64,000 bases of DNA from a virus. A program made the position numbers and the translations under genes. Shown piece by piece: positions 5,320 to 50,542 of the stretch. How positions within the stretch are numbered: position 1 is the stretch's first letter; each line of letters starts with the position of its first letter. The notes under the pieces were generated by a model. It worked only from the letters and a program-made list of their open reading frames with translations, was not told the DNA's origin and made no database searches. The DNA is taken from positions 1 to 64,000 of IMG/VR virus record IMGVR_UViG_3300034072_001149; one strand, given 5' to 3'.

Positions 5320-6159
5320 TTATAGTCGGTTGCCAGGGATCTGCTCAGGTAGCGCAGTCATCAGACCGTTAGCCTGTGTTGCGTTGTCGAAACGAACAGT
5401 CAGCGTGATTGTCTGGAAACCGGATTCTGCATAATCCAGATCCATGTAATCAACGTTCTCTAGGAAGCAACCTTCAAGAGTCCATGTTTCAACCACAGTG
5501 TCGTTGCCGCCATCCATGGTTTCAATAATGGTCACAAACTTGTAGTTAATACCCGAAGCAAACGCAGTCTGTTCAAAGTGGTTCAGCTGCTTCTGAACCT
5601 GATGACCTACTAGCTTTGCCACGTTGTTGGTCAAGTCATCCTTTAGTGTAATCTGGATGCTGTCCCACTTGTGCTTACCAGCATAGTAGGCGGTTGAGTT
5701 GTAGCTGTGGACTTCGATTGGATCATGATTGATCTTTGGCTTGGTAACTGTGGCAACCTGCTGGGTGAAATCAAGACCACCAGCGATTGGACCAAAGTTG
5801 ACCACGCGAACGCGGAAGCGATACTTGTACTTGAGCTGGAGAAGACCGCCACGGCCTGCCCCGCCACCGAGTGGAACCATTAACATTCAGCCAGTGTCGT
5901 TAATACTGACCCGCCTTACGGCTGCTCATTGTTACCAATGAGATTAGACTATATCATGACCCACTTAGGGGCCCCACCCGTTTCAGCCCACTTGGGCCTA
6001 CGACCTTTCGGTCTAGTCGTTGAACGTTCCGGTTCATAACACCGGCTTCGCTGCTGATTGTCCCTGAGGGATTTCCCAGCAATTAGAGTGGTTTTTCGAC
6101 TAGGATTACTCCTAGAAGCAGCTATTCCATTAACCGAACTTGCTTAGAGTTTCTGCCAT
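5320..6159 (-). CDS. Tail tube protein (T4 gp19-like), spliced: join(6159..6133, 5877..5320)
   Basis: GGAGGTG RBS plus ATG at 6159 gives MAETLSKFG. Joining to GTT at 5877 gives MAETLSKFG|VPLGGGAGRGGLLQLKYKYRFRV (194 aa), with tube motifs YAGKHKW, WTLEGCF and LDY. Confidence 0.88.
5878..6132 (-). mobile_element. Group I self-splicing intron (IA-like, no ORF), 255 nt
   Basis: Exon ends in U and intron ends in G. P (AAUUGCUGGGAAA), Q (AAUCAGCAG), R (GUUCAACGACUAG) and S (GAUAUAGUCU) are present. P7 is GACUA/UAGUC, P7.1 and P7.2 hairpins are present, and P10 is UGGAAU pairing with exon-2 GUUCCA. Confidence 0.93.
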
Positions 6160-28897: not shown

Positions 28898-29557
28898 GTG
28901 ACACCGCCCAAATATCCTCGCACGTTTCACTGGCCGTGGTCCCAGCAGGTCCATAGCGATGACTCCTACCATCAAGATCCGGAGTTCTTCGTCGGCAAAG
29001 AGATCGTAATCACAGAAAAACTAGACGGTGGAAACACTGCCCTGAATGCCGGCAACGTTTATGCTCGTTCGACAGGACAGGAAGCCACACAGGGCTGGTT
29101 TGCTCATGTGAAGAAATACCATGCTTGGAAGACTACTGGGCTAGACCCTATTGTCACCATTTATGGTGAAGATCTGGCTGCTCTTCATTCTATCAAGTAT
29201 AATCTTCCAATGGACGAGACTTACAAGGTCTTTGCTGTTCGGAAGAACGATACGTTTCTGAACTGGGCAGAAGTGGTTTCCACTGCTGATGCTAATGATC
29301 TTGACGTTGTCCCCGTTATTTTTCAGGGCCAGTTCAATAGCGTCAAGGAAATTACCAAGTTCTTTGAAGCGGAAATCGTTAAGCCTAGCTTGTTTGGAAA
29401 CGAGCGCGAAGGTTTTGTGATGCGGACAATCGAAGACATTGTTGCTGATGAATTTGGCCAGCATGTCTGCAAGTATGTTCGGAAGAATCACGTTCAAACA
29501 GATGAGCACTGGACTAAAAACTGGACATGGAACGATTTGAGCCAGCCTAGTTACTAA
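28898..29557 (+). CDS. ATP-dependent RNA ligase catalytic domain
   Basis: KYPRTFH, TEKLDG (motif I), YGE, REGFVMR and KYVR motifs. Confidence 0.85.
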   Translation: MTPPKYPRTFHWPWSQQVHSDDSYHQDPEFFVGKEIVITEKLDGGNTALNAGNVYARSTGQEATQGWFAHVKKYHAWKTTGLDPIVTIYGEDLAALHSIKYNLPMDETYKVFAVRKNDTFLNWAEVVSTADANDLDVVPVIFQGQFNSVKEITKFFEAEIVKPSLFGNEREGFVMRTIEDIVADEFGQHVCKYVRKNHVQTDEHWTKNWTWNDLSQPSY

Positions 29558-47272: not shown

Positions 47273-47496
47273 GGCTCTTGGGGACTCCACCTGAAGATGT
47301 GCCGCTGATTCTTCAGGAATATGTGGACGAAGCAAGAGCCCTTGAATCACAATTGATACAGATAGCTTTTTATATGCGAGGAGGTTGTCCACTGGATCAA
47401 GCTTACAAGCTAACAAATAACCAGAGGAAGAGCACCCTAAAGTTCATTGAAGAGAATATCGAGAGAACCAACAAAACTGGCATTATGATGCACTAA
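47260..47496 (+). CDS. -1 frame extension of the upstream chaperone (putative frameshift product)
   Basis: Slippery T TTT TTC at 47260-47266. The -1 frame is open into ORF 47278..47496 (YMRGG), which has no RBS. Confidence 0.6.
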   Translation, partial: FFRLRLLGTPPEDVPLILQEYVDEARALESQLIQIAFYMRGGCPLDQAYKLTNNQRKSTLKFIEENIERTNKTGIMMH

Positions 47497-47909
47497 AGGG
47501 AGCCAGTTTCCAGAAAAATACCTGCTAGATTGGAGTTGCGACTTACATGGCAAAACTCAAGATCAAGACCCTGAGAGACCTCCTTGAACTTCTTGAACAG
47601 GTCGATAAGCAATTGGTTATTGATCTTCCAAAGACCGGAAGCCTGATTGATAACCAGCTGACTGTCACCAAAAATGACAGCCTTTTGAACGCCATTGTCT
47701 TTGGCCCAAATAACAGCCCAGATCAACGCTGACCATTCCGCCACATTATTAGTTCCCTGCCCGAGATCTTTCATTGTGAGTGCTTGAGGTTTTTCATTAT
47801 CCCTGCAGATGACGATACATGAACTCATTCGTCCTGGGTTGGGTGAACAGCCGCCGTCGAAGTAGATCTTTATTTCAGGGCCATAACGGGCAAAATCAGA
47901 ATTATCCAT
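47493..47909 (-). CDS. rnhA: Ribonuclease HI
   Basis: IYFDGGCSPNPG, TNNVAEW, GDSQLVINQ and HVSRNSN motifs. Confidence 0.9.
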   Translation of the reverse strand: MDNSDFARYGPEIKIYFDGGCSPNPGRMSSCIVICRDNEKPQALTMKDLGQGTNNVAEWSALIWAVIWAKDNGVQKAVIFGDSQLVINQASGLWKINNQLLIDLFKKFKEVSQGLDLEFCHVSRNSNLAGIFLETGSL

Positions 47910-47949
47910 TCCTAATACTAATCAATCAGTCATGGAATCGTCAATCTCT

Positions 47950-48240
47950 TCATGGGCTCTAGCCCATTGGCTTCACCTTCAGCTTGCTTTGCTGCGCTGA
48001 AGGACAAACGTGATTACACTCGCTGTTACTCGTGAATCACGTTTGTATTAGGTTTGAAGTAGAGTTCTGGATTGTTGAGTAAAAAGCAGAATTACGATCT
48101 ATATTCTCCTCGAACATTATCATTGGAATTGGTTACTCAGGACGAACTAATGATTAACAAAGCACTGAGCTTTCTGGCATTGCCAGAATAGCGAAGTAGG
48201 ACTTTGCGAGTGTGAGCTTGCGAGCGCGAGTAAAGGCCTC
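47950..48240. other. Cluster of imperfect hairpins with CGAG/GCGAG motifs (possible primosome/ssi-type origin element)
   Basis: ccttcagc..gctgaagg, acaaacgtgatt..aatcacgtttgt and tttgcgagtgtgagcttgcgagcgcgagtaaag. Confidence 0.4.
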
Positions 48241-48780
48241 TTGACCTTTGGAACTTTGGCTGAACTCTGTATCCAATCGTTCAGTCACACTGACTTCCCC
48301 CGTTTCCGGGAGAAGTTCAAAAATGAATAGAATCTATAGATTTAAGGGATTCACACAATATGACTGGCGTGGACAGTTCAGAGGATCCTAGGTCTGCCAT
48401 TATATCCTGCACCTTTTCAGTGCTCACTGCCGCTTCTGTGTAATCGGTCTCCAGCTGGAGTACCTTTCCACACAGGACGGTCGGTAGTTCGTTACGCTAC
48501 CACTCAACATCTCCATTGCTCACGCCAGCGGCTCCGGAGACTTGCTCGTTTCTTTTCAAAACGAGTCTAGTCTTTGACTAGGGCGTCCCACTCTTTGGAG
48601 AGCGAGGGACCTGCCTAGATTTCCAGGACGTTGCCGAAGCCATCTCCAGATCCATTCGAGATCCGTTGAAGTTCCTCTGGGGTTTAGCACGTAGCCACTT
48701 TCCCAGCCCATGGTCGCCGCCCAATACAGCGCTCTCCGGGGGTTCGAGGGCATGATCTGCGCCTCCACTGCCTTATCTTT
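48240..48780 (-). ncRNA. Large ornate structured RNA
   Basis: GC-elevated with no credible ORF. GAAA/GUAA tetraloops on the minus strand. Long-range pairs 48364-48371 with 48521-48528 and 48379-48385 with 48673-48679. Confidence 0.6.
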
Positions 48781-48828
48781 CTCATACTTCAGTTTCCAAA
48801 CACTGATAAATAAGTATGTAAAGGACGG

Positions 48829-48861
48829 GTATATTATTGGGTGGTAGTATATTATTGGGTG
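48829..48861. repeat. 15-bp direct repeat gtatattattgggtg x2
   Basis: Copies at 48829-48843 and 48847-48861 within a G/T-skewed tract. Confidence 0.9.
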
Positions 48862-48920
48862 TTTTTAGGCGTTTAAGTGTTTAGGTGATCGCCTGGTGGC
48901 TCAAATCGTTCTTAGTGTAT

Positions 48921-48970
48921 GGGCCCCGGTTGGAACTTCCAGTTCCTCCGGGGCTCTTTGTTTTTGTTTT
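48921..48970 (+). terminator. Terminator of a short plus-strand transcript
   Basis: gggccccgg...ccggggctc followed by tttgtttttgtttt. Confidence 0.65.
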
Positions 48971-49103
48971 GTGTCTAGGGGCTATAAAGTAGAATCTGTA
49001 ACAATCCTCTTGTGGGATATTTAGTACACAGATTAGACCAATTTAGTGGTCTCGATTCAGCTACATCTGATTATCGATCTGGGTGACAACCAAAATCACC
49101 CTT

Positions 49104-49913
49104 TTAGAAGTTTTCTTCTTTCATCGAAACAAGAATACACCCACTTCTGGGGCTCTTTACTCTTTGATCCTTTATCCAGTATGGTACCTTACTGTGCTTG
49201 ATGTCAACAAACCAGGTTTCTTTTTCTGTATTCTCCGTGCCAAAAACATAACGTAGAAAGATCAGATTCCAGCGATGATCTGATTCCAAATCATAACCCT
49301 TGATTACAATTGGATTCTTGGAGTATGAGGTATAAAGGTAAGTTAGATCGGATTCTTTTACATACTCCACCTTTGTCAAAGTCTTCCTAGGAATTTGAAG
49401 ACATTGTCTGTTGGTATCGTATTTGCTTAATAGTTTGATCGGTCCAGAGTAGACATCTTTCCTCAACGCTTTGGCTGCTTGAAGCTTATAAAAATCCAAA
49501 AGGACTCGGGCCATGCTCTTTTTTACCTGGGGGTCAATCCTAGCTGGTTTGGCTGGTAGATCCAACAGATACAAAAGCTTTTCACTTAGAAAGCGATTGC
49601 CCTGAGAATTTTTACCAAGGATCATCCTACGATGTGGTTGAAGATGATTTGGCAATACCGGTTCAGAGGAATCGTTAAAGTATGGCTTTAGTGACATCCC
49701 AGACTCTGCTAGCGTTTCCCAAAGACTAACCCAATCTTTATGAAGAGAAACCAAAAGTTCAGGACAAGACCGGACCCTAGAATTCAATCCTTCTACCAGA
49801 GAATTATAATAGCCTATCTCTTGCTTTATAAACCCTTTGTAAAGAGCAGCATCGGTAGAAGCTAGATCAATCATAATACTCAAATCACGAAATTTAGCTT
49901 TCACAATCAACAC
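49104..49913 (-). CDS. Protein resembling the WED/REC half of TnpB/Cas12f, lacking RuvC
   Basis: R-DLSIMI-(22 aa)-YYN, IDPQVKKSMARVLLDFYK, PIKLLSK..RQCLQIP and TWFVDI occur in TnpB-like order. No GIDLG follows. Confidence 0.45.
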   Translation of the reverse strand: MLIVKAKFRDLSIMIDLASTDAALYKGFIKQEIGYYNSLVEGLNSRVRSCPELLVSLHKDWVSLWETLAESGMSLKPYFNDSSEPVLPNHLQPHRRMILGKNSQGNRFLSEKLLYLLDLPAKPARIDPQVKKSMARVLLDFYKLQAAKALRKDVYSGPIKLLSKYDTNRQCLQIPRKTLTKVEYVKESDLTYLYTSYSKNPIVIKGYDLESDHRWNLIFLRYVFGTENTEKETWFVDIKHSKVPYWIKDQRVKSPRSGCILVSMKEENF

Positions 49914-49996: not shown

Positions 49997-50542
49997 ATGT
50001 TTATGACTAGCCGACAAAAATCCAAAGGTAATGCCTGGGAAAACGAGATCTGTAAGTTTTTTGGAGAGACTCTAGGAGGCAACTTCCAGCGAGTCCCCAA
50101 TTCAGGCGCATATATCGGCGGGAAGAACGTCTTCAGAAAGGACCATCTATCTGAAGGGCAGGCTCGAGCAGCCAAGGGAGATATCATTCCTCCTGATGAT
50201 CTACCAAAGTTGAATATTGAAGCCAAGAACTATGGCGACATTGCCTTTCATCAGATCATTGATGGGAGTTGTAAGCAACTTGATACTTGGATTGATCAGA
50301 CAGAGGAACCAGCCGACCAAGGCGACTTTTCAATGACCATCTTCAAAATTACTCGCAGGGGAAGTTGGGTTGCGTTCAAGGCTGAAAATCTAGAGAAGTT
50401 TGATATGACTGGACTCTCATATGTTACCTATCGAAAAGGGTTCGGTTCTGAAAATGCTTGCGACTATATTGTAGTCAGTCATGTGCCGTTTTTCATCCAA
50501 AACAAATCGGCAGTAAGGAAACTAGGTGGCGCTGAAAATTGA
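49997..50542 (+). CDS. Holliday junction resolvase (Hjc-like PD-(D/E)xK)
   Basis: SKGNAWE, RVPNSGA, GDII and IEAK motifs. Confidence 0.85.
   Translation: MFMTSRQKSKGNAWENEICKFFGETLGGNFQRVPNSGAYIGGKNVFRKDHLSEGQARAAKGDIIPPDDLPKLNIEAKNYGDIAFHQIIDGSCKQLDTWIDQTEEPADQGDFSMTIFKITRRGSWVAFKAENLEKFDMTGLSYVTYRKGFGSENACDYIVVSHVPFFIQNKSAVRKLGGAEN

Follow-up and report, generated by a model that had tools for sequence, protein, structure and literature searches.

Described systems closest to the locus

To our knowledge, TnpB and Cas12f proteins always have an RNA partner, which comes from the 3′ end of their own gene. The locus described here has a similar layout. It lies on the minus strand of a 64,000-nucleotide (nt) stretch of viral DNA, positions 1 to 64,000 of the IMG/VR virus record IMGVR_UViG_3300034072_001149, which we call the window. 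It comprises an open reading frame (ORF) for a protein of 269 amino acids (aa), ORF269, a structured RNA just behind it (module A), a variable spacer, a large and elaborately folded ('ornate') RNA, a tail of hairpins, and a gene for RNase HI. An earlier note on this DNA had read the block as a possible self-contained replication origin. Every element that it listed is present at or near the coordinates given there, whereas the origin function is unsupported. We propose instead, with about even confidence, that ORF269 is a nuclease-free, TnpB-derived RNA-binding protein with its own omega-like RNA, coupled on the same strand to large ornate RNAs that are interchangeable among related phages.

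The locus shares several traits with the TnpB–omega-RNA complexes of IS200/IS605 elements (e.g., ISDra2; PDB 8H1J, 8EXA) and with Cas12f and its single-guide RNA (sgRNA). The modelled ORF269 protein has the WED and REC fold of these proteins (Z 9–10.6) and the same topology, in which an N-terminal strand is followed by a helical insertion and the remainder of the barrel. In both cases the gene's 3′ end holds or is followed by a structured RNA, and a variable segment comes after a conserved scaffold. Unlike TnpB and Cas12f, ORF269 has neither a RuvC nor a TNB domain, no detectable sequence similarity to the family, and no surrounding transposon. The RNA region behind it is also far larger, about 0.8 kb in all, and no guide–target pair was found when the spacer was searched against the phage genomes G000 and G003 (see below).

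TldR proteins and the sigma-factor-paired, nuclease-dead Cas12f proteins (dCas12f; PDB 9N9C, 9N9M) are, like ORF269, domesticated relatives of TnpB or Cas12f that do not cut DNA, and a number of them reside in phages; of the structural matches of ORF269, dCas12f is one of the best (Z 10.2). These proteins keep an inactivated RuvC domain and have guide RNAs with identifiable targets (bioRxiv 10.1101/2023.11.30.569447; PMC10691335), whereas ORF269 lacks the entire C-terminal half and the searches of the phage genomes revealed no guide target. Each exapted TnpB or Cas12 relative in the literature that we searched retains at least a dead RuvC, unlike the ORF269 family.

The large RNA has relatives of its own. 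EGFOA RNAs (Rfam RF02955) form RNA-only trimers and dimers in vitro; their trimer and dimer structures have been solved, they have no known function, and they sit in unusually long gene-free regions (bioRxiv 10.64898/2026.07.01.735769). The 3′ domain of the ornate RNA in the window, which we call class 1, aligns over the full 108-position EGFOA model and keeps the consensus secondary structure with covariation, and its homologue in one related locus (L015) scores above the gathering score. The window copy differs in carrying insertions of 14 and 28 nt and in scoring below that threshold. Moreover, the EGFOA-like segment is here one domain of a 489-nt RNA, not a small RNA of ∼110 nt, and it lies in a jumbo phage beside a TnpB-like gene, a setting that our literature search did not find described for EGFOA. 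Like GOLLD and ROOL, the class-1 RNA is several hundred nt long, multi-branched, strongly covarying, phage-carried and of no known function. It differs from them in having no Rfam match to either and no nearby tRNA genes, and in that one and the same syntenic slot may hold either of two unrelated RNA classes.

The record to which the window belongs (G000) is 159 kb long, the window being its first 64 kb. Because a record of this length is rated by CheckV as just 34% complete, a jumbo phage is implied, here a T4-like one. Syntenic relatives were taken from large viral contigs, namely G003 (435,856 bp, complete with terminal repeats), G002 (416,714 bp) and G001 (181,816 bp); further relatives, numbered as L loci, came from other viral and metagenome contigs, with a metagenome scan adding a single new locus (L060). 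The closest cultured relative is Sinorhizobium phage Phosso (PV764938.1, 469 kb), with which the Holliday junction resolvase encoded next to ORF269 shares 59.7% identity. The gene order resolvase, ORF, RNA, baseplate hub is kept in all relatives, down to 30% protein identity. Salicola phage SCTP-2 is not syntenic and was set aside. Searches of the locus and of ORF269 (blastn and tblastn) against 50,697 phage records returned no match.

Fold and family of the ORF269 protein

49104..49913, minus strand: ORF269, encoding a 269-aa TnpB/Cas12f-like protein of WED and REC domains (ORF list; AlphaFold2 model and structure matches)

The ORF269 protein is recognizable by its predicted structure. AlphaFold2, given a 115-sequence alignment, returned a model with a mean predicted local distance difference test (pLDDT) score of 91.9. 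The top 44 matches of this model in a Foldseek search against the PDB are all Cas12f, TnpB, Cas12n/k/m/g or Fanzor, and all 50 rows of a VIA-align comparison belong to the same superfamily (Z 10.6–9.0, root-mean-square deviation 3.5–4.4 Å, 160–172 residues aligned). Residues 5–241 of the model align to the N-terminal ∼1–210 of Cas12f or to residues 1–174 of ISDra2 TnpB. The aligned part of the target ends at about residue 174–211, and at most at 296, which corresponds to the WED and REC domains only. A structure search of BFVD placed two members of the family itself first, followed by TnpB-like transposases of giant viruses. On the strength of this model, ORF269 is very probably homologous to TnpB/Cas12f.

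Sequence comparison gives no such signal. Searches of Pfam, PHROGs and PDB sequences with ORF269 were all without a match, the 115 family members match no Pfam or PHROG family (OrfB_IS605 and HTH_OrfB_IS605 included), and an ESM Atlas feature search gave no usable lead. The earlier label of a 'RuvC-less TnpB-like' gene of 269 aa thus holds for the ORF and its coordinates and is borne out by structure; it is not demonstrable by sequence in Pfam, PHROGs or the PDB. A profile search of 1.84 billion representatives identified 184 relatives (clusters at 50% identity) of 96–345 aa, and the ORF is intact across the 184 clusters. The protein is basic (isoelectric point 9.4; family median 9.36), and its start codon is uncertain, being either GTG at 49913 or an alternative a few codons downstream.

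The RuvC nuclease domain with its D-E-D triad is absent from ORF269, and even the longest family member, at 345 aa, is too short to hold one. Longer or fused homologues were sought and none was found, which is weak evidence by itself. A search for the TNB zinc finger (PF07282) was negative for G000, G002, the complete G003 and Phosso, with a control that was positive in eight of 14 genomes. Because RuvC and TNB are wholly absent, nuclease activity is impossible, and by the nuclease features that define the family ORF269 is not a TnpB. The family, spread over 184 clusters and syntenic in T4-like jumbo phages, keeps just the half that binds RNA or duplexes, and so constitutes a natural experiment on that half alone.

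A structured RNA directly behind the ORF

48923..49084, minus strand: module A, a structured RNA of ∼165 nt that starts ∼20 nt past the ORF stop; candidate counterpart of the omega-RNA scaffold
49076–49053, minus strand: hairpin H0, stem CGAU-UCAG/CUGA-AUCG with loop AUGUAG; covaries in RNAalifold
49052–49035, minus strand: hairpin H1, variable in sequence; covaries by eye in alignments
49034–48993, minus strand: hairpin H2, variable in sequence, enclosing TAAATA at 49023–49018; covaries by eye
48992–48978, minus strand: invariant CUACUUUAUAGCC, followed by an A-rich linker
48954–48923, minus strand: hairpin H3; covaries in RNAalifold

Module A and the ORF co-occur in 14 loci, down to 31% protein identity; module A is conserved in 12 loci and is still found behind ORFs of 31–32% identity (L014, L066). 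Phosso has neither module A nor an ORF269 homologue in its whole genome; as a control of the search, the ORF269-family gene was found once each in G000, G002 and G003. The ORF and module A are the sole pairing that is constant within the clade, in which the large RNA and RNase HI are frequent and dispensable.

Some distant family members have other features behind the ORF. About 40–110 nt past the ORF stop, L025, L026, L027 and L034 have a terminator-like hairpin and a repeated conserved motif, TTGGCTCAG ... AACGTTGGCTCAGGACGTTCAC. The motif precedes a small conserved ORF (MKKFFPKNAK...), and the large RNA is absent there.

The class-1 ornate RNA and its EGFOA-like domain

48282..48770, minus strand: class-1 ornate RNA core, 489 nt, with a long-range closing helix (48770–48767 with 48285–48282)
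48362..48533, minus strand: class-1 3′ domain, EGFOA-like, with 48 modelled pairs (covariance model R1; Rfam RF02955)
47925..48281, minus strand: module C, a hairpin-rich tail with GCAAG/CGAG-rich stems

The ornate RNA of ∼540 nt that had been placed at 48780–48240 is real. Its core is the 489-nt segment listed above, and it is supported by covariation: an RNAalifold consensus of 48803–48281 (minus strand) from four phages (the window and G001–G003) contains 145 pairs, 22 of them with compensatory changes. For the 3′ domain we built a covariance model (R1, 48533–48362), as had been suggested for the block, and it finds one copy per genome in eight phages at 125–201 bits. Across these eight phages 94.5% of cells pair, compared with 35–45% in slid-partner controls, and 22 of the 48 pairs show double (compensatory) changes; none of 500 shuffles reaches the observed values. 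The invariant G-U pairs place the large RNA on the minus strand.

The 3′ domain matches Rfam EGFOA (RF02955) in the window with 35.9 bits (E 1.7e-4, full model 1–108), short of the gathering score of 37.7. The copies in G001–G003 score 34.8–35.9 bits and the homologous domain in L015 reaches 46 bits, so that the clade straddles the EGFOA threshold. The locus therefore offers a genomic home for an EGFOA-type RNA, a family whose oligomers are structurally solved and which has no known biology, here as one domain of a ∼0.5-kb RNA. Rfam searches up to an E value of 10 gave nothing besides EGFOA at the RNAs, GOLLD and ROOL included, and ARAGORN scans found neither tRNA nor tmRNA, nor any tRNA genes nearby. 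RNase P, group I or II introns and tmRNA were dropped as identities for want of an Rfam or ARAGORN signal. A scan of genome contigs with an EGFOA-consensus pattern matched only a coding region of a Bacillota metagenome-assembled genome; this region has no Rfam match and was discarded as chance.

The hairpins that the earlier note saw downstream of the RNA (48240–47950) are likewise present, extending over 48281–47925 with a fold z of −3.9, and they are partly conserved in loci with either class of large RNA.

Comparison of the window with G003 shows how unevenly the locus has changed. The flanking genes are 80–85% identical in nt and ORF269 is 55–65% identical in nt and 52–56% in aa, whereas the RNA core is 98–100% identical. 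ORF269 may have diverged because the protein evolves fast or because its allele was replaced, and the RNA core may be nearly identical through very strong constraint on it or through recent exchange.

Promoter-like motifs and a putative antisense unit

48813..48922, minus strand: variable spacer separating module A from the large RNA, the least conserved part of the four-way alignment
48805..48975, plus strand: putative antisense small RNA unit of ∼150 nt, with a promoter-like GATAAATA, a variable body, and a terminator-like hairpin with a T-run
48805–48812, plus strand: promoter-like GATAAATA, conserved
48923–48954, plus strand: intrinsic-terminator-like hairpin (hairpin and T-run 48923–48975) from a terminator scan, conserved

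Sixteen of the 22 copies of TAAATA in the window fall within the 12% of the DNA that is non-coding (binomial P 7e-11), and the copies are mostly 15–45 nt upstream of start codons (e.g., 49972 on the plus strand and 51474, 3804 and 43917 on the minus strand). These two properties mark TAAATA as a promoter-like motif of the phage; it is probably the phage's own promoter core, perhaps of late type. The exact T4 late octamer TATAAATA does not occur in the window, and 'late' is used here by analogy with T4. The minus-strand TAAATA at 49023–49018, previously called a late promoter, is present; its promoter role at this place is uncertain, because it lies inside the H2 stem of an RNA that has already begun upstream. 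The same position within H2 argues that module A exists as RNA upstream of the motif, presumably as a 3′ extension of the ORF transcript.

The spacer holds a 15-nt tandem duplication specific to this phage. The seven close class-1 loci each have exactly one TATTTA(TC), which lies at a matching position some 50 nt upstream of the RNA core and reads GATAAATA on the plus strand. The hairpin H3 with its T-run is likewise conserved in the seven loci and would terminate transcription on the plus strand; the intervening ∼110 nt vary freely. The predicted fold of the unit has a z of −3.0. A plus-strand antisense RNA of ∼150 nt, as proposed earlier, is a reasonable prediction from the conserved motif and terminator; it would overlap the spacer and not the conserved RNA core.

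The motif TATTTATC(C), whose antisense is GATAAATA, also lies downstream of ORF-family genes at L067:∼1750 and L068:∼2140. Because neither locus has module A, the antisense promoter-like element is perhaps older than the RNA modules.

RNase HI at the end of the block

47493..47909, minus strand: type-1 RNase H (RNase HI; Pfam RVT_3 6.6e-12 and RNase_H 8.1e-8; PHROGs phrog_531)

We take the catalytic residues of Sulfolobus tokodaii RNase HI to be numbered D7, E52, D76 and D125. The protein at 47909–47493 is most like this enzyme (2EHG; E 3.8e-13), which together with the Pfam matches, both above their cut-offs, supports the RNase HI gene that had been assigned to the block. A D, an E and a D align with D7, E52 and D76. 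For the fourth aspartate, D125, the alignment ends at chain residue 122, counting by offset gives no Asp, and the clade reads ...NLAGI... there. RNase HI is adjacent to the RNA region in the window and in 10 related loci. Three loci with a class-2 RNA (see next section) have an extra ORF of ∼155–163 aa between the RNA and RNase HI (L019:4786–5274, L021:4609–5070, L024:4778–5272), which matches no Pfam family above the cut-off.

Exchange of parts among relatives

Four phages carry an unrelated RNA in the class-1 slot. This class-2 ornate RNA of ∼480 nt (L018:3990–4545, L019:3990–4520, L021:3995–4540, L024:3995–4520) is predicted to form 120 pairs, of which 27 are compensatory; it matches nothing in Rfam and is recognized neither as a tRNA nor as a tmRNA. 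It starts directly after module A, and the four loci keep the ORF, module A and the 3′ tail around it. A second, uncatalogued ornate RNA that exchanges into the same slot is thereby revealed.

Other relatives lack one part or another. L015 has the ORF, module A and the class-1 RNA, and an RNase H gene was neither called nor detected there. In Phosso only the class-1 3′ domain and RNase HI are present, and its genome nowhere encodes an ORF269 homologue. Its RNA domain lies where RNase HI and the resolvase are separated by 1,015 nt without annotation (L036:4987–6000; about 229759–230772 of PV764938.1); R1 scores 125.7 bits there, at L036 5579–5413, and a blastn search with this region against the phage collection returned Phosso itself only. 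The presence of a class-1 RNA in a cultured phage with a tractable host, Sinorhizobium meliloti, makes the function of the RNA directly testable.

How the parts may act together

We favour the reading in which ORF269 would be the RNA- and heteroduplex-binding half (WED and REC) of a TnpB/Cas12f-type protein from which RuvC and the TNB zinc finger have been completely lost. This protein would most probably bind module A, whose position matches that of the omega-RNA scaffold behind tnpB. Module A would be on the same transcript as the ORF, as a 3′ extension like the omega-RNAs, and would continue on the same strand through the variable spacer into the 489-nt RNA, all within one transcript. Since module A would run on into the large RNA, the protein would mark, hold or deliver a large folded RNA and not cut DNA, and the complex would presumably be expressed late. 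The large RNA would be a separable cassette, present without the protein in Phosso and replaced by an unrelated RNA elsewhere. The earlier suggestion that the protein handles an RNA is thus plausible, given a structured RNA that lies right behind the stop codon and co-occurs with the gene; as a part of an origin it has no support. We also entertain, as a rather improbable elaboration, an omega-type scaffold that serves as a handle for interchangeable large RNAs, in a late RNA-guided or RNA-tethered complex that delivers a folded RNA or seeds an R-loop processed by RNase HI.

Several observations weigh against the favoured reading. Module A matches no omega-RNA family in Rfam. The distant family loci L025–L035 (23–32% identity) have an intergenic region of just ∼120 nt, with neither module A nor a large RNA, and L067 and L068 also lack module A, so that the pairing of ORF and module A belongs to one clade and not to the whole family. 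Because Phosso has the RNA without ORF269, the large RNA does not depend on the protein. Finally, with a promoter-like TAAATA inside module A, transcription of the large RNA could be separate from that of module A's upstream part.

Some of these observations also favour the main rival, which we consider somewhat unlikely: that the parts are independent neighbours. The 489-nt RNA would then be an autonomous non-coding RNA gene comparable to EGFOA, GOLLD or ROOL and might assemble by itself, ORF269 would have a separate task, and module A would be a 3′ untranslated region, terminator or regulatory region. EGFOA oligomers consist of RNA only in vitro (bioRxiv 10.64898/2026.07.01.735769). The RNA of Phosso stands without ORF269 or module A, distant ORF-family loci stand without any large RNA, and the slot can hold either of two unrelated RNAs; the contrast between a nearly identical RNA core and a divergent ORF269 in the window and G003 points the same way. 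Module A counts against independence. Its four hairpins, two covarying in RNAalifold and two by eye, together with its invariant single-stranded motifs far exceed the needs of a terminator, and it tracks the ORF to 31% identity. Proteins of the TnpB/Cas12f donor family, moreover, always work with an RNA from the gene's own 3′ end.

We consider it improbable that ORF269 and module A act as an RNA-guided DNA binder like TldR or dCas12f. Here the guide would lie in the spacer 3′ of H3, and the complex would repress or mark a host or phage target. The layout of a conserved scaffold followed by a variable segment is that of an omega-RNA, the retained WED and REC domains are those that hold the guide–target duplex in TnpB (as in the matched PDB entries), and ORF269 evolves fast relative to its flanks. 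Yet neither G000 nor the complete G003 is matched above chance level by k-mers from the spacer and tail, and no target emerges. The sole 15-mer matches 48911–48897 to 29530–29544, where a gene at 29.5 kb has its 3′ end; chance alone predicts ∼0.28 such matches in the region searched, and the 15-mer is not conserved in G003, where the target site itself persists. In class-2 loci the spacer is missing altogether and H3 leads straight into the large RNA. RuvC, which also helps to hold the RNA, is missing here, and we know of no RNA-guided relative that works without that domain.

The replication origin proposed in the earlier note now appears highly improbable. In that model the transcript would form an R-loop, RNase HI would trim the primer, an antisense RNA would exert control, and the TnpB-like protein would assist. 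In geometry the block resembles the ColE1 origin (RNA II, RNA I and RNase H) and the R-loop origins of T4: a structured RNA of ∼0.5 kb, a putative convergent antisense unit of ∼150 nt over its 5′ leader, and an adjacent RNase HI gene, here in the window and 10 related loci. Holliday junction resolvase and SbcCD-like genes are also nearby. However, the antisense unit lies over the variable spacer, outside the conserved RNA, and RNase HI lacks conservation at its fourth catalytic Asp. The parts are also separable among relatives. The synteny comparison that the note had called for shows the elements conserved and the triad of protein, RNA and RNase HI not obligatory, as L015 has no detected RNase H, Phosso has no ORF269 protein, and class 1 is replaced by an unrelated RNA in four phages. 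Structural constraint on the RNA is far above what a primer needs, and the dense compensatory covariation and the EGFOA-type domain indicate a folded RNA that acts as RNA and not as a mere primer. Cumulative GC skew, also named as a check, declines almost monotonically in both the complete 436-kb G003 and the 159-kb G000, following local gene orientation, with no inflection specific to the locus. Taken with the separability of the parts and the strong constraint on structure, this skew leaves the origin model without positive support.

It seems equally unlikely that the block is what is left of an IS200/IS605-type mobile element or a recombination cassette, in which case the near-identity of the RNA would reflect recent lateral exchange and not function: the RNA core is indeed far closer to G003 than the flanks or ORF269 are, and classes 1 and 2 interchange between common flanks, module A and module C, but the locus is syntenic in all relatives to 30% protein identity and single-copy per genome, neither TnpA nor inverted ends nor further copies were seen, all 184 clusters have an intact ORF, and the compensatory changes in more distant phages indicate selection on structure.

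Neighbouring genes and a group I intron

49997..50542, plus strand: PDDEXK_15/RusA-like Holliday junction resolvase (Pfam PF24608 6.6e-23)

The resolvase is the divergent neighbour of ORF269 and a syntenic anchor, and we do not claim it as part of the system. Other genes of the neighbourhood encode a T4-type baseplate hub, a portal, a tape-measure-like protein, a radical-SAM protein and an SbcCD-like protein. Elsewhere in the window, at 5925–6142 on the minus strand, lies a group I catalytic intron (Rfam RF00028, 89.1 bits, E 2e-21) that matches the model over its full length.

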